Positions 1 through 5,756 of a DNA stretch of 5,756 bases are shown here, in pieces. The notes under the pieces were generated by a model. The model was not told where the DNA came from. It saw nothing but the letters and a program-made list of their open reading frames with translations, and made no database searches. Both the position numbers and the translations under genes were made by a program. Location of the stretch: positions 1-5,756 of the IMG/VR virus record IMGVR_UViG_3300045988_000096. One strand, 5' to 3'. The stretch is from a virus. Position 1 is the first letter of the stretch, and every line of letters starts with the position of its first letter.

Positions 1-119
1 CCTCCTTTCTTTCCATATTTGTGTGCAAATAGAAGGTTTCTGACAGTGGAGGCAGAGCATTCCTCCTTTACATTTCGCTGCCAGTCCCCTCATGTCAATT
101 TTACCAAAAAAAAAAAAAC
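1..119. repeat. Direct terminal repeat, copy 1 (identical to 5638..5756); assembly overlap of a circular genome
   Basis: Base-by-base comparison shows 1..119 equals 5638..5756, including the A13 tract (106..118 and 5743..5755). Position 120 continues with unique sequence. Implied unit length is 5,637 nt, within the Microviridae size range. Confidence 0.95.
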
Positions 120-146
120 GCAAGGTCAACTTTCGTCAACCTCACG
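106..146 (-). terminator. Rho-independent terminator on the minus-strand transcript, downstream of the 52-aa ORF
   Basis: The minus-strand RNA reads CGUGAGGUUGAC-GAAA-GUUGACCUUGCG (119..146). This is a 12-bp stem (8 Watson-Crick plus 4 G-U pairs) with a GNRA (GAAA) tetraloop, followed directly by U13 (plus-strand A13, 106..118). The wobble pairs become C-A mismatches on the opposite strand, so the structure works only for minus-sense transcripts. It starts 10 nt after the stop codon at 156..158. Confidence 0.8.
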
Positions 147-155
147 ATTTTTGGT

Positions 156-314
156 TTATCTTTCGTATTCTTTGAGTTTTTCACAGATTGCGTTTGTCCA
201 TTCGTCATCCATTTTGTACTCTTCTTTTATCTGCTCTCGGTCTTCGCTTCTCCATCCACCGTCGTATAGTGCTGCTGCGCAGTTTTCAACTTCTTCTTCA
301 TAGTAGCTTTTCAT
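156..314 (-). CDS. Hypothetical small acidic protein, 52 aa: MKSYYEEEVENCAAALYDGGWRSEDREQIKEEYKMDDEWTNAICEKLKEYER
   Basis: Hand translation, ATG at 314..312 and TAA at 158..156. AGGAGG (comp 326..321) lies 6 nt upstream of the ATG. A consensus promoter lies upstream and an intrinsic terminator 10 nt downstream. By hand count, 16 D/E versus 8 K/R. No family recognised. Not in the ORF track (below 60 aa). Confidence 0.7.
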   Translation of the reverse strand: MKSYYEEEVENCAAALYDGGWRSEDREQIKEEYKMDDEWTNAICEKLKEYER

Positions 315-333
315 GGTGTGCCTCCTAGTTTGT

Positions 334-384
334 GGTGTGCTCTTCTTACACCTTTATTATACACCTAAAACATGCACTTGTCAA
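334..384 (-). promoter_or_regulatory. Promoter P1 (perfect sigma-70/sigma-A consensus) plus downstream palindromic operator candidate
   Basis: Minus strand reads TTGACA (comp 384..379), a 17-nt spacer, then TATAAT (comp 361..356). Three nt later comes the inverted repeat GGTGT-N9-ACACC (334..352), then 7 nt, AGGAGG, 6 nt and the ATG of the 52-aa ORF. Confidence 0.8.
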
Positions 385-413
385 GCAGAACTTTGTCTAG
401 ATGGCCGTCAGGT

Positions 414-447
414 CGGCGCTGGTGCGCCGGATGAAAATGACGGCGCA
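414..447 (-). other. GC-rich three-segment element able to form two mutually exclusive hairpins
   Basis: On the plus strand, CGGCGC (414..419) pairs with GCGCCG (424..429) across a 4-nt loop. Alternatively, TGCGCCG (423..429) pairs with CGGCGCA (441..447) across an 11-nt loop. The middle segment is shared. No U-tract follows on either strand. Confidence 0.45.
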
Positions 448-479
448 GCTTTCCGTGACTACGTCGTCCTGTCCTTTAT

Positions 480-500
480 TGGCCGTTCTCCCCCCGGCCA
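480..500 (-). other. Hairpin immediately downstream of the Rep stop codon
   Basis: TGGCCG (480..485) pairs with CGGCCA (495..500). The stem is 6 bp with a 9-nt loop, 1 nt from the Rep TAA (502..504). No U-run follows on the minus strand, so it is not a canonical intrinsic terminator. Confidence 0.4.
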
Positions 501-501
501 C

Positions 502-1680
502 TTATATTTCATCTCTTCTTAATTTGGAGAACTTTTCTTGATTTTTCGTGTCGATGTTGTTATAATGTTCTTGCAGACTATAGCCGTGTTGTGCGAGCTG
601 AGCAAATAGAGCGTCGTTGGCGATTTTCCGTCGCTTTCTCTTTATTTCCTTGAGTTCGTCCGACTCGGCTTTTATTATTAGAGCTTCGTAATCCTTTTCT
701 GTTTCGGCGTTTAGTGGTTCGCTGTTGCTGTGTTCAAGATCAAAGAGCTTGTCGAAGTATGCTGGCGGTTTACATCTTTTTCCTTTACTCAGCTGGATAC
801 TGTCTTTTTGATATATCTCGTCTTTATGGTCTTCGTAGTATCTCCAGCCGATTGATGGTTTTGTGCTGATTCTGCTATCTTCTTCCTCGATACACATATC
901 GAGGAATTTTTCTTTTGCTTCGCCATATGCTTTCTTGGAACAGTATGCTGCTGTATATGCCATGTCGTTCCATTCTGCCACTCCGATAATTACGAAGCCT
1001 TTTCCCCATATCTGGTTGAGCCATGCACAGGTGTAGTATACTCTGCCTTTCTGTTTTTTATACACCTTCAGTTCTTTCGGGTCTATGTATAAGCTGTACA
1101 CGATCGCGTGATAATGCGGTCTGTGCGTTTTCGTGCCGTATTCTCCTCCAGCGTAGTACATGAGTTTATTTTTCATGCCTACTTTTTCATCATAGACTTG
1201 GTACATTCTTTCGTGATACTCTGTCCATCTTCTCAGCCTTTTCCAGAATGCCGTTAAATCATCATAGTCTAGTGTTAGGTTCGTTGTATACTCTCCGCTT
1301 GGAGCTTTCAGCACTCCGTTTTTGTCGATGCCTTTGCCTCTTTCGATGTTGATTGGAACGTGCTTGTTGTCGTACGTCAATGTTAAGAACCAAGCCTGAT
1401 CGTGATACGGTAATTCCATCTCCATTCGATTTGCCCAGCTCTTTCGTCTATCCAAAATGCATCCTTGGCAATGTTTACAAGGACATATTACAATTTCGCC
1501 GGTTTTGATTTTTGCTTTGACTTCTCGTTCTCTTCTGCGCTGCGTTGTTATGTCGTCAGCTGGCGCTGTGTTCGGCTTGTTCGACATTCCGTATTTGATA
1601 TAGCGTTCTAGTGAACTAAAAAAATCGTCTCCGTTTTTCTTCGCTCCGAAGATTCTAATGTTGGGTCTGCCACATGGCAT
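502..1680 (-). CDS. Replication initiation protein VP4 (HUH rolling-circle endonuclease, phiX174 gpA family), 392 aa
   Basis: Motif I is FLTLTY (aa 98-103). The HUH motif is RPHYHAIVY (H189-Y190-H191, nt 1108..1116). The two-tyrosine motif is AYTAAYCSKK (Y242, Y246), matching the YxxxY spacing of phiX174 A protein. The N-terminal MPCGRP and the cysteine cluster CPCKHCQGC (aa 66-74) are typical of Microviridae VP4. GGAGGTG lies 8 nt upstream of the ATG at 1680. Confidence 0.93.
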   Translation of the reverse strand: MPCGRPNIRIFGAKKNGDDFFSSLERYIKYGMSNKPNTAPADDITTQRRREREVKAKIKTGEIVICPCKHCQGCILDRRKSWANRMEMELPYHDQAWFLTLTYDNKHVPINIERGKGIDKNGVLKAPSGEYTTNLTLDYDDLTAFWKRLRRWTEYHERMYQVYDEKVGMKNKLMYYAGGEYGTKTHRPHYHAIVYSLYIDPKELKVYKKQKGRVYYTCAWLNQIWGKGFVIIGVAEWNDMAYTAAYCSKKAYGEAKEKFLDMCIEEEDSRISTKPSIGWRYYEDHKDEIYQKDSIQLSKGKRCKPPAYFDKLFDLEHSNSEPLNAETEKDYEALIIKAESDELKEIKRKRRKIANDALFAQLAQHGYSLQEHYNNIDTKNQEKFSKLRRDEI

Positions 1681-1703
1681 GGATGTTTCACCTCCCGGGG
1701 TCG

Positions 1704-1746
1704 CACTGGGGGGAAATGTCCCTCTTGATTACATTTCCCCCCAGTG
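1704..1746. other. Perfect 16-bp inverted repeat with an 11-nt loop in the RHH-Rep intergenic region
   Basis: CACTGGGGGGAAATGT (1704..1719) is the exact reverse complement of ACATTTCCCCCCAGTG (1731..1746). The loop is 1720..1730. The element ends 24 nt upstream of the Rep ATG on the minus strand. No T-run follows on either strand. Confidence 0.85.
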
Positions 1747-1829
1747 ACACAAAAATGCGTCTGACGGTTACTGTCGGGCCTGTATTTTTGTTGCATTCAG
1801 TTTGCACGGCGAAGCCGTCAAACGGCTCC

Positions 1830-2006
1830 TTAACGCACTTCTTTCCCTGTTATTTTTTCGCTGTAGTATACTATCGCGTCCCGGATAATGTCGGATGTGT
1901 TTGCTTTCCAGTTCCGGTTTGTATACTCTTTCGTCAGGTTTTCCAGTGCATCGTTTTCCGCTTTGGTCAAGTTGATATTAAATCTCTTTGTGATCTGCGT
2001 TCTCAT
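1830..2006 (-). CDS. Ribbon-helix-helix (CopG/Arc/MetJ-like) DNA-binding protein, 58 aa: MRTQITKRFNINLTKAENDALENLTKEYTNRNWKANTSDIIRDAIVYYSEKITGKEVR
   Basis: Hand translation, ATG 2006..2004 and TAA 1832..1830, with AGGAGG (comp 2017..2012) 5 nt upstream. The sequence pattern fits an RHH fold: an N-terminal beta strand (KRFNINL), helix A (TKAENDALENLTKEY), and a helix B cap of the x-S/T-x-S-D/E-hydrophobic-I-R-D/E-A-I type (NTSDIIRDAIVYY). Not in the ORF track (below 60 aa). Confidence 0.7.
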   Translation of the reverse strand: MRTQITKRFNINLTKAENDALENLTKEYTNRNWKANTSDIIRDAIVYYSEKITGKEVR

Positions 2007-2024
2007 GCTAGCCTCCTATAGCTA

Positions 2025-2075
2025 AGTGTGTGATTGGTACACTCATAATATACACCTCTTTTCTCCACTTGTCAA
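2025..2075 (-). promoter_or_regulatory. Promoter P2 (near consensus) plus palindromic operator candidate; paralogous to P1
   Basis: Minus strand reads TTGACA (comp 2075..2070), a 17-nt spacer, then TATATT (comp 2052..2047). Three nt later comes AGTGT-N9-ACACT (2025..2043), then 7 nt, AGGAGG, 5 nt and the ATG of the RHH gene. Spacing from -35 to SD is identical to P1. Confidence 0.75.
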
Positions 2076-2080
2076 CTATT

Positions 2081-3019
2081 TTATGGTAACATTGGAAGAC
2101 CCGGTAGTAAGCTGAACTGGCCTTTTGCTCCAAGGCCTGCGTCAAGTCGCCCTTCGTTTTTGAACTCGTGACCTTTGGTTTCTTGCTCCTGTTGCGTGGT
2201 GCTGTCCATCCGCTCGCCCAGCTGGCCCACGGTTTTTGCGCTGCTGCTTACGGTTTGCTGTTGCATCTGCTCGAGGTGCTCAGCTGTCCAGTAGTCAGAA
2301 CTTTGTTTCGCGTTGTTGATGGCCGTTTGAAAGTTCTGCACGATCTGTGCCGTGTTGTTGCCGTAGTCATACATTGCCTGCATGGTCGCGTTTTTGGCTG
2401 CTGGTGCTGCCAGAGCCTGAGCGTGTGCGAAGGTCTGACCGCCACCGAGGCTTCCATAGCCTCCCGATGGCGTCTGTGCCCCATAGCCGTTATAGGCTGC
2501 TAAGATAGGATTCAATCCCGCTGCTTTGAGGTCTGCCACGCCTCTCTGATAGCTGGTATTTGCCATTCGCTCTTGCCAGGCTCTTTGTGCTTTGGCCTCA
2601 GCTGAGTTATACCGCATTGCGCTGGTTTGGCTCGCTGCGCTCATTGCGTTGGATGCTAGAGCGTTTCCCATGTTGAGAAGATTTCCCATCATCCATGTAC
2701 CGGTCTGCAAGTCGTTGGCAGTTTTTGCGTTTGCTGTGTTGAAGTCTGCTGCGTCTTGAGCGTTGTTGCCTGTCGGAGTTCCGAGTGCTGTTGCCAGCAG
2801 ATTTCCCAGTGCGCTTGTGTTGCCGGTCTGGACGCTCCCACCTGCGCTTGTAGTGTTTTGTGCGGTGCTTCCCATGGTTGTACCGCTTTGGATTGTGTTT
2901 TGCATTGTGCCCTGCTGTTTTGCGCTGGACGTGCTCCCTTTTAAGCTGCTGTATATGCTGTATAATGTGTTTGCTAGAGTTATGCCGCCTTTGATAATAC
3001 CCATTAGCCCGATTGCCAT
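2081..3019 (-). CDS. Minor capsid / DNA pilot protein VP2, 312 aa
   Basis: Sits immediately downstream of VP1. The N-terminus is hydrophobic ([20 protein letters not shown]). The central region is long and rich in Q/T/S/A/G/N. It carries the motif I recall as characteristic of gokushovirus VP2, [27 protein letters not shown] overlaps the VP1 stop, 7 nt before the ATG at 3019. Confidence 0.85.
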
Positions 3020-3031
3020 TGCGCTTCCTCC

Positions 3032-4654
3032 TTAGATGGTATCAAGGCCTGGGATGCTGTAGATCGGCATTGCCCTTGTCCACGTCTGGTCGAAGTAGAA
3101 GTTGCAGATAAATTGGTGGTTGTTCTGGCTTTCTACCGCGATCGTTCTATCAATGTTCTGTCTTCCCTCTTTAATCCATTCGCTGGAGAGAGTCGGCAGA
3201 CTCGTGTATTTATCGGCATAGTGCCAAGCATCCAGTGTCTGCGCGTAGGTGCTGCGCATTTCGCCTGTGATCATGTTTGTCCGGTATCGGTAGTCTGCCC
3301 AAGCTTCCTGATAGCCGAATACTTCTTCGTCCTTTGCGTTGCCCTGTGCGTAGATTTCCTGATTGAGCACCGCTTGCTCACCGAGGTTTGCAAGCATCGG
3401 GTCATAGTAGGAAAAGCGTGTGCTGCGTGTCCACAGCCGGGACAGGCCCTGCTGATAGCTGTGATCAACTCGCACCGCTGCCAGACCGATGATGAAACCA
3501 TGTTCCGTTGCGCTGTATGTTGCCATGTTCCGGCTCATCGTGGTCATGGAGAATGCTGCAGTGTTGCCCTGTGGACTCGTCGCGTCTGTGCTGGACGTCT
3601 GAATGACCTGATTGATGTTGATAGGCAGTCTGTAGCCGCCGATGTATTCCGAGCGGTCAAGTCGTGCATCCGGACTCGTTACACCCCAAGCACCCTGTAA
3701 GATTTCCTTGTACCGTGTGCCGGTGCGTGCATCTCTTTCCATAATGTGTTGCACAGCGATGGCCTGTCTCAGTTCGTTGATGGTTGCGGCTGTTACGTTG
3801 CTCATGTCTGCGCCAAGTACTGGGTGTAAGCTTTCGTCTCTTTCGGTGTATACCTGTGCTGGTTTCGCTCCGCTTACATCGTCTCCGTTTACGCCTGCAA
3901 AGTAAGGGATGAAGTTTGTCATTATGCTTAGATCTGTGCTGTCCAGTTTTTCTTTGAGGCTTGCTGTGCCGTATCCATAAATCGGTGCCGCTCCTGTCAT
4001 CGGCAGCGTCACAGCCTCGCCTTTCTGAGGACTCGGCAGGCAGCTTGTGAAGTAGTCCTTGTACTTACAGACTTTGAGCGGTAGCCCTCCGGCTTCGGCG
4101 TCGGTCAGTGCTGTTCCTGCGTTGCTTCCTGCGGTCGTGGCGTCCGTCTTGCTCATCGTGACAGGCTGCTGTAAATTTTCGTCTCGAAACCATTCGTTCC
4201 AGATTTTGACATATGCCCGGAAAGGCAGGCTGTTCACCTGAAGGTTTTCTATGCCGGTCGGAATGCCGAAATAATCCGCCAGTGTGCCTACGTTCCAGCC
4301 GCCAGTTGGTGCGGTTGTTTTCGGAGTTGTGTATTCTACTTTTTCGGCCCAGAAGGTCGAGTCGTTCTGACCCATGAGGTTTTCGAAATGCTCCCACAGC
4401 AGCCGCGACGGTACGAAGAAGAAGTAAAAGTCACAGTAACAGTTATCCATGACAGGATACAGCGGTGTGCTCATGCGCATAAGTGCATTGAGGTCAATCT
4501 TTGCTGTGTCTGCCGGTAATACCTCGTCACAGTAGATCGGGACTAGATCGCCTTCGTTTATCGTGGTTAGCAGGCTATAATCTCGTTTGAATCTTGCGCG
4601 CGGCACGTTTGCATGAGGTACTTGGCTGTAATGCTGTTCAGCGTTTCGGTTCAT
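3032..4654 (-). CDS. Major capsid protein VP1 (Microviridae F-like jelly-roll capsid), 540 aa
   Basis: Size is typical for the family. The N-terminus HYSQVPHANVPRARFKRDYSLLTTINEGDLVPIYCDEVLPADT matches the conserved family pattern (RS-F-...-TT-...-G-L-PI...E-LPGDT). The start overlaps the VP3 stop in ATGA (4651..4654). Confidence 0.95.
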   Translation of the reverse strand: MNRNAEQHYSQVPHANVPRARFKRDYSLLTTINEGDLVPIYCDEVLPADTAKIDLNALMRMSTPLYPVMDNCYCDFYFFFVPSRLLWEHFENLMGQNDSTFWAEKVEYTTPKTTAPTGGWNVGTLADYFGIPTGIENLQVNSLPFRAYVKIWNEWFRDENLQQPVTMSKTDATTAGSNAGTALTDAEAGGLPLKVCKYKDYFTSCLPSPQKGEAVTLPMTGAAPIYGYGTASLKEKLDSTDLSIMTNFIPYFAGVNGDDVSGAKPAQVYTERDESLHPVLGADMSNVTAATINELRQAIAVQHIMERDARTGTRYKEILQGAWGVTSPDARLDRSEYIGGYRLPININQVIQTSSTDATSPQGNTAAFSMTTMSRNMATYSATEHGFIIGLAAVRVDHSYQQGLSRLWTRSTRFSYYDPMLANLGEQAVLNQEIYAQGNAKDEEVFGYQEAWADYRYRTNMITGEMRSTYAQTLDAWHYADKYTSLPTLSSEWIKEGRQNIDRTIAVESQNNHQFICNFYFDQTWTRAMPIYSIPGLDTI

Positions 4655-5148
4655 TCCTTATTTTCTCCTTTCTGCACAACTTTTTCAGCTGCAGCATCGA
4701 CCTTCTCTTGTGCATCCTGCTGAGTTTTGATGCCCATTTTGTTGAGCCACTCTTTTTCACCGGCTGTTGCTATCCAGTTTTCGAAGTTCATACCGAAAGC
4801 CTGACGCACACTGAGTGGAAGCTTATTGAACTGCTCCCGTTTCTCGTTCATCATGTTCATGTACTCGGTGTAGGTCTGTGGCAGCTTGCTGGTGTCGATG
4901 TACCAGCCCGGTTTTGCCAGTACGCTTTCGTCGCCGGCAGCGTACCGGCTCAGAATTGCCATGACGTCGCATTCGTCCTTATAGCTTTGGATTTTCTCGT
5001 AGGTGTCCACTTCGCCGACCTTTTCCAGGTACGGCTGCCCTCGGTCGTCATACCGCTCTTTGTACTCCGGTTCAAACCGGTTGCCCGGTTCGTTCGGCAG
5101 TGCCAGCGGTTTTTCGTCCTCGTAGGGCTTAAAGATTCTTACTCCCAT
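4651..5148 (-). CDS. Internal scaffolding protein VP3, 165 aa
   Basis: Sits directly upstream of VP1 and is translationally coupled to it. The segment IQSYKDECDVMAILSRY and the later FNKLPLSVRQAFGMNFENW resemble conserved blocks of gokushovirus/chlamydiamicrovirus VP3 scaffold proteins. AAGGAG lies 7 nt upstream of the ATG at 5148. Confidence 0.85.
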   Translation of the reverse strand: MGVRIFKPYEDEKPLALPNEPGNRFEPEYKERYDDRGQPYLEKVGEVDTYEKIQSYKDECDVMAILSRYAAGDESVLAKPGWYIDTSKLPQTYTEYMNMMNEKREQFNKLPLSVRQAFGMNFENWIATAGEKEWLNKMGIKTQQDAQEKVDAAAEKVVQKGENKE

Positions 5149-5392
5149 TGAGCTGCTCCTTTTTCATGAGTTCGATGTTGTACATGAGCATCGGCAGCGC
5201 TAGCGGCTTGATCTGGCCGCTTTCGTTGTCGTACTTGCCCAGAAGATAGACTCGCTTATCCTCGCAGTCGGCTTTCTCCATCTCCTGTGCCATCCATCTG
5301 AAGGTGCGGTTGGCCACCTTTTCATTGACCACCATCAGATTGCCGAAGATGCCAGACAGTTCGTCTTTTACTGCGTATACCTGAAATTCCAT
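5129..5392 (-). CDS. Small conserved Microviridae non-structural protein (VP5/ORF5-like), 87 aa; function uncertain
   Basis: AAGGAG lies 7 nt upstream of the ATG at 5392. The ORF overlaps the VP3 start by 20 nt. The sequence (EFQVYAVKDELSGIFGNLMVVNEKVANRTF...YLLGKYDNESGQI) resembles the small protein I recall upstream of VP3 in gokushoviruses. That family assignment is from memory and unverified. Confidence 0.65.
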   Translation of the reverse strand: MEFQVYAVKDELSGIFGNLMVVNEKVANRTFRWMAQEMEKADCEDKRVYLLGKYDNESGQIKPLALPMLMYNIELMKKEQLNGSKNL

Positions 5393-5404
5393 GATGATTC
5401 TCCT

Positions 5405-5524
5405 TTATAAACGGATGCCGCCGCGCGACGGCTTCGGATTGACGTTGATTTTTTTCGTCTTCTTTGCGGTATTGGTGAAGACTTTCTTATCCTTTTTCGG
5501 ATTGACCGGCATTCGATGTGCCAT
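5405..5524 (-). CDS. Small basic DNA-binding/packaging peptide (phiX174 J / gokushovirus VP8-like), 39 aa: MAHRMPVNPKKDKKVFTNTAKKTKKINVNPKPSRGGIRL
   Basis: Hand translation, ATG 5524..5522 and TAA 5407..5405. AAGGAGGAG lies upstream, and the ATG is 1 nt after the stop of the preceding ORF. The peptide is highly basic (K/R rich). The F-x-x-T-A core and C-terminal RGGIRL ending match what I recall from small Microviridae DNA-binding proteins. Not in the ORF track. Confidence 0.75.
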   Translation of the reverse strand: MAHRMPVNPKKDKKVFTNTAKKTKKINVNPKPSRGGIRL

Positions 5525-5525
5525 A

Positions 5526-5630
5526 TTACTCCTCCTTATCCAGTCCCATGGCGTGGTAAATCTTGTCCAGCATCGCAAGGATCTTCCTCAGCTGATTAAA
5601 AATCCCGCGGATGTCTTTCACAGTAATCAT
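5526..5630 (-). CDS. Hypothetical 34-aa peptide: MITVKDIRGIFNQLRKILAMLDKIYHAMGLDKEE
   Basis: Hand translation, ATG 5630..5628 and TAA 5528..5526, with AGGAGG (comp 5643..5638) 7 nt upstream. It is coupled to the next ORF (TAAtATG). It is predicted to be mostly one amphipathic helix, with no transmembrane segment and no recognised family. Confidence 0.5.
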   Translation of the reverse strand: MITVKDIRGIFNQLRKILAMLDKIYHAMGLDKEE

Positions 5631-5637
5631 GGCAACA

Positions 5638-5756
5638 CCTCCTTTCTTTCCATATTTGTGTGCAAATAGAAGGTTTCTGACAGTGGAGGCAGAGCATTCC
5701 TCCTTTACATTTCGCTGCCAGTCCCCTCATGTCAATTTTACCAAAAAAAAAAAAAC
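5638..5756. repeat. Direct terminal repeat, copy 2 (identical to 1..119)
   Basis: See copy 1. It contains the SD of the 34-aa ORF, candidate promoter P3 and the A13 tract. Confidence 0.95.
5685..5735 (-). promoter_or_regulatory. Candidate promoter P3 for the structural gene block (weak -10), with downstream palindrome; a second copy lies at 48..98
   Basis: Minus strand reads TTGACA (comp 5735..5730), a 17-nt spacer, then AAATGT (comp 5712..5707; only the A2 and T6 consensus positions match). Three nt later comes GGAGG-N9-CCTCC (5685..5703). This geometry matches P1 and P2. The T13 and AAAA just upstream of the -35 could act as an UP-like A/T tract. It is the only TTGACA between the terminator and the first structural-block ORF. 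Confidence 0.35.

Follow-up and report, generated by a model that had tools for sequence, protein, structure and literature searches.

The virus record IMGVR_UViG_3300045988_000096 (IMG/VR, positions 1 to 5,756; this whole stretch of 5,756 nt is called the window below) contains a small gene between the genes for the pilot protein VP2 and the replication initiator Rep/VP4. It codes for a 58-residue protein (MRTQITKRFNINLTKAENDALENLTKEYTNRNWKANTSDIIRDAIVYYSEKITGKEVR; 2006-1830, stop codon included). We assign it to a previously undescribed microvirus gene family, predicted to encode a ribbon-helix-helix (RHH) DNA-binding protein, with the arrangement promoter, RHH gene, putative origin, Rep. 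All genes of the window are on the minus strand. Unless stated otherwise, positions refer to this strand and are given in descending order.

Judged from sequence, the gene, its promoter (P2) and its leader form a self-contained cassette in one clade of gut gokushoviruses, with VP2 on one side and an origin-like hairpin and Rep on the other. We infer cotranscription with Rep, binding to P2 and repression, so that the cassette would set the dose of Rep by CopG-like autoregulation. This reading is plausible, and we put its probability close to the balance point. Microviruses are the textbook minimal phages, whose gene expression is attributed solely to the strength of promoters and terminators and to mRNA stability. 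The RHH protein is probably the first example of a dedicated regulator in such a minimal family of viruses. If it is a DNA-binding regulator, it would be the first candidate for a phage-encoded transcription factor in microviruses.

The 58-residue protein and its family

A length of 58 residues is in itself unremarkable, as the window holds 70 open reading frames (ORFs) of at least 30 codons. The case for a gene comes from selection and synteny. In comparisons with 10 relatives, the ratio of non-synonymous to synonymous substitution rates (dN/dS) is 0.05-0.27, at a dS near 1. The initial annotation had called for a survey of microvirus genomes for small ORFs upstream of VP4. The related IMG/VR microvirus genomes that were first fetched (31 in total) all have a gene for an RHH homologue in the gap that separates VP2 from Rep, and its strand is that of its neighbours. 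Purifying selection and strict synteny together argue that the 58-residue ORF is a real gene.

The family extends well beyond these genomes. A word-indexed search returned 61 close clusters, and an exhaustive profile search returned 38 representatives at 50% identity. A profile search of a set of 5.8 billion proteins raised this to at least 175 protein clusters. The contigs listed for these 175 clusters are all 6 kb or shorter, with the exception of one chimeric 48-kb contig (see below).

The family has no entry in the described microvirus gene set, as the initial annotation had presumed. Our literature search turned up no account of an RHH or CopG-like protein from a microvirus. Homologues are encoded in three GenBank microvirus records, where the gene is unannotated. 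The only names known for the family come from automatic pipelines ("Arc/MetJ-type RHH regulator" and "DsrC/TusE", the latter an evident mis-call). A global survey of microviruses lists methyltransferases and lysis genes as the only accessory genes, and no regulators (PMC9239249).

We consider it highly probable that the protein has the RHH fold. AlphaFold2, supplied with an alignment of 42 sequences, returned a model with a predicted local distance difference test score (pLDDT) of 89 and a predicted template modelling score of 0.68. Residues 1-14 are extended, followed by helices at 15-30 and 37-53, and this modelled topology corresponds to that of an RHH monomer. The prediction is for a monomer only, and its unpaired N-terminus looks like one half of an RHH dimer. 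A first run, based on close homologues only, gave a poor all-helical model (pLDDT 67) and was superseded by the deeper alignment. The five best fold matches in the PDB (Foldseek) are RHH chains, namely NikR, CdbA (twice) and ParD2 (twice). Their template modelling scores are 0.46-0.55, and their E-values (2-4) are not significant for this very short query. Matches in BFVD include named RHH and CopG phage proteins (E = 0.5-4). Searches of PDB sequences with the single sequence and with the close family returned nothing meaningful.

The window protein stays below every curated RHH threshold. Its best Pfam match is to CcdA (17.2 bits against a threshold of 22.4; E = 0.0069), and it has a sub-threshold match to phrog_876, a "transcriptional repressor" (E = 0.0085). 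The Pfam search with the window protein itself gave no match to RHH_1. The assignment thus depends on the family and not on this one protein. Of 42 family members, 16 match RHH_1 (the CopG family). A single one of the homologues, P0070, exceeds the gathering score of RHH_1 over the full domain (22.4 against 20.5 bits). Other weak matches recur within the family, to CcdA, RHH_3, 56B_RHH, aCcr1, the ORF56 plasmid copy-control family, NikR, Ta1207 and DUF6290. Most of these are named RHH families, Ta1207 and DUF6290 being the additions. The ORF56 copy-control family of NCBIfam is weakly matched by four members (best E = 1e-4). The clear RHH pattern claimed in the initial annotation is supported by the model and by the family-level matches, while the Pfam thresholds are missed by the window protein.

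Conservation in the 42 sequences, which reach down to about 35% identity, is concentrated in a few residues. R8, N10, T14 and R42 are invariant, and N12, D39, I41, A44 and I45 are conserved in at least 90%. The start of helix B (S-D-I-I-R-x-A-I) is retained over the same range. In RHH proteins, alternating polar or basic residues of the strand read the major groove, and the N-terminus of helix B contacts phosphate. We predict that R8, N10 and N12 are the residues of the strand that face the DNA.

The match to CcdA, an antitoxin, and the presence of ParD among the weak PDB matches might indicate that the protein is the RHH antitoxin of a toxin-antitoxin pair. The gene downstream is, however, Rep and not a toxin. 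The protein ends five residues after helix B and has no C-terminal toxin-binding extension. An unexpressed chance ORF is contradicted by the dN/dS values, by a consensus promoter and by a strong ribosome-binding site. We regard both possibilities as very improbable.

Promoter P2, its twin P1 and the candidate operator

The ORF, promoter P2 and the ribosome-binding site were found on the minus strand where the initial annotation had placed them. P2 (2075-2047) consists of a -35 box TTGACA (2075-2070), a 17-nt spacer and a -10 box TATATT (2052-2047). It matches the consensus at 11 of 12 positions, so the near-consensus promoter claimed for the gene is there. The ribosome-binding site AGGAGG (2017-2012) ends 5 nt before the ATG. 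Matches of at least 11/12 to the sigma-70 consensus occur at only two sites in the window, P2 and a second promoter (P1, 12/12), whereas 0.04 are expected according to 500 Markov simulations. Both are on the gene strand and intergenic, and each has a ribosome-binding site and then an ATG downstream.

The initial annotation had also reported that no convincing promoter separates the RHH gene from Rep, and we arrive at the same result. The best minus-strand matches near the gap reach only 9/12. One lies inside the ORF (1894-1865) and the other extends from the start codon of Rep (1680-1652). The scan for minus-strand terminators between the 58-residue ORF and Rep returned none.

Within the RHH cassette, conservation is highest in the promoter and leader. 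Mean identity between the window and 29 relatives is 81% from the -35 box to the ATG, 62% in the RHH coding sequence and 57% in the upstream flank. The invariant blocks in 51 distinct P2 sequences are TTGA, GGTGTATA (over the -10 box), TATG, GTGTA (near +1) and AC-C. Two GTGTA units of P2 are 13 bp apart, and the last one forms an inverted repeat with ACAC. The candidate operator (2056-2026) comprises GGTGTA over the -10 box (2056-2051), GTGTAC near +1 (2042-2037) and the inverted ACAC (2029-2026), all of them invariant or almost invariant among the 51 P2 variants. The inverted repeat reads AGTGT-N9-ACACT in the window and GTGTA-N7-TACAC in relatives L015 and L016. We propose that the RHH protein may bind to these GTGTA units and to the inverted repeat.

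Two attempts to find further signals in this region were not productive. A repeat search in P1 and P2 with 6-nt seeds gave nothing useful, the GTGTA units being only 5 nt long. A short upstream ORF that would start from the conserved ATG after the -10 box (MSVPITHLAIGG) was rejected. It varies at codon positions 1 and 2 while position 3 is fixed, and its ATG is upstream of the expected transcription start.

P1 (384-335) is a twin of P2. Its core, TTGACA-17-TATAAT (384-356), is followed by the same kind of GTGTA units and by an inverted repeat, GGTGT-N9-ACACC. The overall build is TTGACAAGTG...GGTGTATAAT-AAAG-GTGTAA-N6-CACACC...AGGAGG. The P1 consensus has three GTGTA units that are 13 bp apart, the first of which is GTGCA in the window. 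GTGT-N(8-11)-ACAC occurs in the window at P1 and P2 only, and other gene-strand promoters reach at most 9/12. An operator-like promoter design that is common to P1 and P2 fits autoregulation.

P1 precedes a 52-residue, very acidic, tryptophan-containing ORF (314-156; MKSYYEEEVENCAAALYDGGWRSEDREQIKEEYKMDDEWTNAICEKLKEYER) and, to judge from its position, drives it. The only strong intrinsic terminator of the window (146-119, followed by a T-run) is located 3' of this ORF. The 52-residue protein has no family match, and in relatives its slot is occupied by other small ORFs. In L088 (IMGVR_UViG_3300022212_000150, 4598 nt), three tandem copies of a 13-nt unit, GGTGTATAATAAA, are found upstream of a non-RHH ORF. 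The length of this unit echoes the 13-bp spacing of GTGTA in P1 and P2.

In the proposed sequence of events, the incoming single-stranded DNA (ssDNA) is made double-stranded, upon which a host RNA polymerase of the sigma-70 type would fire P2. This would yield one mRNA that carries the RHH gene and then Rep. As RHH dimers accumulate, they would bind to the GTGTA units and the inverted repeat over -10/+1 of P2, and to the like units in P1. Binding would shut both promoters, and Rep, like the small acidic product of P1, would be made in an early burst that limits itself.

Exchange of RHH alleles and the hairpin before Rep

RHH alleles are swapped between conserved flanks without regard to Rep, as two complementary patterns indicate. 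Relatives L024 and L025 share with the window the promoter (92-93%), the downstream spacer and Rep (97-99% amino-acid identity), yet identity to the window drops to 49% in the RHH protein, and the swap junctions are at the start and stop codons. In L004 and L005 the RHH protein is 89% identical, while Rep is only 45-47% identical. The independent exchange argues against a specific partnership between the RHH and Rep proteins. It would agree with a protein that uses an invariant strand to read a promoter that is invariant as well.

The exchange of the coding sequence between flanks that are 92-99% identical gives the cassette the look of a mobile module. It may be that the position before Rep is a mere insertion spot, and that the protein regulates other targets, either in the host, in the phage itself (its late, structural genes) or in a co-infecting phage (exclusion). 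The fact that a promoter of the same design, P1, precedes an unrelated small acidic protein would agree with this. On the other hand, the cassette is found in the VP2-Rep gap only (31 genomes first fetched), and the most conserved non-coding DNA is the cassette's own promoter. The restriction of GTGT-N(8-11)-ACAC to P1 and P2 also points to these promoters as targets, no other gene-strand promoter exceeding 9/12. We consider regulation of other targets improbable, and somewhat more so than the accessory role in replication treated below.

The initial annotation described the RHH ORF as lying directly upstream of VP4. This holds insofar as Rep/VP4 is the next gene, but the two do not abut. They are separated by a 149-nt spacer that contains two hairpins. 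The first hairpin (1827-1813, AGCCGT-ttg-ACGGCT) is small and GC-rich and follows the RHH stop codon immediately. It lacks a T-run and was rejected as a canonical terminator. Its counterpart in relatives reads GCCGGG-gaga-CCCGGC.

The second hairpin is more prominent. A flank, TTTTGTGT, is followed by a perfect 16-bp inverted repeat with the arms CACTGGGGGGAAATGT and ACATTTCCCCCCAGTG and the loop AATCAAGAGGG (1755-1704 with the flank, 1746-1704 for the hairpin); as read, it is TTTTGTGT-CACTGGGGGGAAATGT-aatcaagaggg-ACATTTCCCCCCAGTG. Every relative has a homologous hairpin. There are 31 distinct combinations of arm and loop, all of which are perfectly complementary over 12-19 bp. The loop (A/G)TCAAGA(G/A) is conserved, and its core ATCAAGAGG is invariant (L004-L143). 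In an alignment of 19 sequences, compensatory double changes occur in 14 of the 16 pairs, with no one-sided changes and no G-U among 304 pair-cells. Such Watson-Crick-only covariation suits an inverted repeat in the DNA better than a helix in the RNA. The hairpin is very stable, with folding z-scores of -5.6 as DNA and -3.7 as RNA. A role as RNA terminator or attenuator is unlikely, as there is neither a T-run nor any G-U pair.

This hairpin is neither part of the RHH cassette nor specific to it. Gokushoviruses MN379640 and KT264785, which lack the RHH gene, have a like hairpin directly upstream of VP4 (seen by eye). A scan of whole genomes, with position not considered, detected a perfect repeat of at least 12 bp around a CAAG loop in 16 of 17 RHH-less genomes. 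The stem sequence tracks the type of Rep and not that of the RHH protein. In other HUH replicons, the nick sites are in hairpin loops. By this analogy, the 16-bp hairpin is probably the recognition site of Rep or the rolling-circle origin, which, to our knowledge, has not been experimentally defined for this gokushovirus group. It would then be the probable replication origin for the group as a whole.

Some signals in this region face the opposite way. Within the 5' part of Rep, the plus strand has a promoter-like site (1465-1494; 10/12), and beyond the start of Rep it has hairpins that resemble terminators and carry T-runs (1707-1727 and 1759-1779). A countertranscript similar to RNA II of pMV158 is conceivable from these sites.

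Many homologues carry a C-terminal tail. Of the 95 family sequences available at the time of this count, 52 have [LI]-P-[FY] at the very end of the protein, preceded by an acidic stretch, as in EEEDLPF (35 times), DDDDLPF, EEDELPF and PDDLPF. Linkers vary greatly in length, and the proteins have 58-114 residues. The carriers are found among P0008-P0060, P0075, P0086, P0088, P0090, P0091, P0096 and P0098, as well as L097 and L103. No such tail is seen in the window protein or in its six closest clusters, where the C-terminus reads TGK(E/K)VR. In some relatives, a second RHH-like ORF or a protein with two modules (P0074, 125 residues; P0075, 104 residues) is located between the first RHH gene and Rep. 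In L032, such a second ORF (ca. 4165-4550) ends with NDDLPF. The tail resembles the tip of the host's SSB (a protein that binds single-stranded DNA), which in Firmicutes is DDDLPF. The C-terminal hexapeptide DDDIPF of SSB recruits many replication and repair proteins (PMC5872125).

The tail raises the question of whether the RHH protein serves replication, with transcriptional effects being secondary. As an accessory protein or adaptor, it would bind phage DNA near the hairpin or the promoter, and would either help the HUH Rep, much as relaxases are aided at oriT by RHH accessory proteins, or recruit host replication and repair proteins via the tail. In line with such a role are the position of the gene, which has a conserved DNA hairpin of invariant loop directly 3' to it, and the tails, including that of the second RHH-like ORF of L032. 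RHH auxiliary proteins of the relaxosome form an established class (PMC5675868, PMC4175270). However, the absence of the tail from the window protein and its closest relatives indicates that the tail is not the core function. The presence of the hairpin in RHH-less gokushoviruses, with a stem that follows the type of Rep, implies that the origin works without the RHH protein. Moreover, RHH alleles are swapped independently of Rep, and the only site beside the hairpin that is common to all genomes is TGTCA, which is also found in RHH-less genomes. We judge an accessory role in replication to be unlikely.

It is tempting to speculate about a combination of both functions. The RHH family might be a sequence-specific DNA anchor that presents, in the majority of lineages, an SSB-tip mimic (EEEDLPF). 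It would thereby tether or titrate the host proteins that interact with SSB (PriA, primase, RecQ, RecJ, polymerases) near the phage origin, coupling the shut-off of Rep transcription to the recruitment of host replication. The tail-less allele of the window would then be a derived, repressor-only form. We would not attach more than a low probability to this scheme, though the tail does hint at a hijack of the SSB interaction network of the host.

For the reading that we prefer, autoregulation of Rep dosage by the RHH protein, several points count as objections. The sub-threshold profile scores and the insignificant fold matches were given above. The GTGTA units, at a distance of 13 bp, are not on one face of the helix, unlike the four sites of CopG. 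The short inverted repeat of the leader tolerates T-G in some genomes, which fits a 5' stem-loop in the RNA rather than an operator. The 19-nt motif GGTGTATAWTAWRRGTGTA (GGTGTATAAT...GTGTA) is also found in promoters of unrelated large phages in IMG/VR, at about the rate expected by chance, so that the motif alone says nothing about binding by the RHH protein. In favour of the reading, the promoter motif and the RHH gene co-occur: among 79 microvirus loci, 59 have both, 17 have neither, 3 have the RHH gene only and none has the motif only. Phylogeny confounds these counts, as does the manner in which the loci were fetched, and we take them to indicate a linked cassette, not binding. Also in favour, two RHH-less relatives that were inspected have a VP2-Rep gap without such a promoter. 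Among the objections, again, are RHH alleles that are just 49% identical although promoter and Rep on either side are the same. There is no terminator between VP2 and P2, so that read-through transcripts from VP2 would also reach Rep and control by P2 may be partial. Finally, a plain repressor has no need for the tail, and this keeps the replication-adaptor reading alive.

Genome context and known systems

The window represents the circular genome of a gokushovirus-type microvirus. An exact direct repeat of 119 nt (1-119 and 5638-5756) is the overlap from assembly of the circle, and the true length is 5637 nt. The repeat contains the T-run of the terminator, followed by a TTGACA (98-93 and 5735-5730) without a recognisable -10 box. 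The closest GenBank records are gokushoviruses from human and pig gut, with about 80% identity. The gene order on the minus strand is as follows. A basic 57-residue ORF (5578-5405) matches phrog_10695 with its last 39 residues (MAHRMPVNPKKDKKVFTNTAKKTKKINVNPKPSRGGIRL); it is probably a VP8/J-like DNA-packaging protein, and its true start is probably at an internal ATG. VP5 (5392-5129), the scaffold protein VP3 (5148-4651), the capsid protein VP1 (4654-3032; Phage_F, 3e-164) and VP2 (3019-2081) follow. After VP2 and the 58-residue ORF comes Rep/VP4 (1680-502; 392 residues), an HUH replication initiator (Pfam REP_ORF2-G2P, 2.3e-13; phrog_942, 1.8e-82). Its ribosome-binding site GGGAGGTG (1696-1689) was read directly from the sequence.

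The initial annotation had suggested that the regulator might support a carrier or pseudolysogenic state. The data lend no support to this, nor to lysogeny. There is no integrase in the genome, two scans of 185,579 representative genomes found no relative, and a tblastn search of 72,556 plasmids gave no match at E-values up to 1. A single contig (L001; ENA ERZ27281030 k141_41694, 48,421 nt) joins a related microvirus to bacterial or integrative and conjugative element (ICE)-like genes (FtsX/ABC transporter, helix-turn-helix protein, DUF5720, ALP_N). Its virus part covers 5664 of 5756 nt. It is likely a chimera and was rejected as a prophage, because 92 nt of the circle are missing and the virus end runs into an Illumina adapter, AGATCGGAAGAGC (AGATCGGAAGAGCACACGT).

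If the proposed autoregulation is true, it would provide abundant gokushoviruses of the human and pig gut with a simple means of timing the synthesis of Rep. Several characterized systems can be compared. Arc and Mnt of P22, omega of pSM19035 and ORF56 of pRN1 have the same fold and size, and in each case regulation at repeats that overlap a promoter is the expectation. However, the matches of the window family stay below the curated thresholds, and none of those proteins is microviral. The relaxase accessory proteins (TraY, TrwA, NikA, MobC, and Aux1/Aux2 of pLS20) offer another parallel, an RHH gene beside the gene for an HUH nuclease and a nick region of the hairpin type. They differ from the window system in that sister genomes (L114, L115) have hairpin and Rep but no RHH gene, and in that no RHH site was identified beside the hairpin loop. 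The SSB tip (DDDIPF) is comparable to the many homologues that end with [DE]n-[LI]-P-F after a flexible linker. Here, the tail is attached to an RHH domain predicted to bind double-stranded DNA and not to an ssDNA binder with an oligonucleotide/oligosaccharide-binding (OB) fold. The window protein is tail-less.

The initial annotation had proposed the CopG-RepB module of pMV158 as a model. CopG is a 45-residue RHH protein that is cotranscribed with repB from the promoter Pcr, and its operator of about 50 bp spans the -35 and -10 boxes (PMC2724298). Of the proposal, the arrangement promoter, RHH gene, HUH Rep stands for the window, and the two genes have this order in 31 of 31 related genomes. 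Homology to CopG is not shown beyond the RHH superfamily. There is no detectable sequence relationship (no plasmid match, no RHH_1 match for the window protein), and membership in the CopG family is not supported. The replicons differ as well, one being a plasmid and the other a lytic ssDNA phage. The candidate sites of the window are at -10/+1 with a spacing of 13 bp, while pMV158 has a 13-bp element on the -35 box and four sites on one face of the helix. The window has an origin-like hairpin between the RHH and Rep genes and a second promoter of like design. pMV158 has a second control, an antisense RNA that acts on rep translation; in the window no antisense RNA is evident, and an SSB-tip-like tail is present in many homologues. 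In both systems, a small RHH protein (45 and 58 residues) is encoded on the same strand as an HUH rolling-circle initiator and 5' of it, the pair is preceded by one strong promoter, and symmetric or repeated conserved DNA covers the core promoter. By this analogy, CopG-RepB of pMV158 would be the functionally closest known system.

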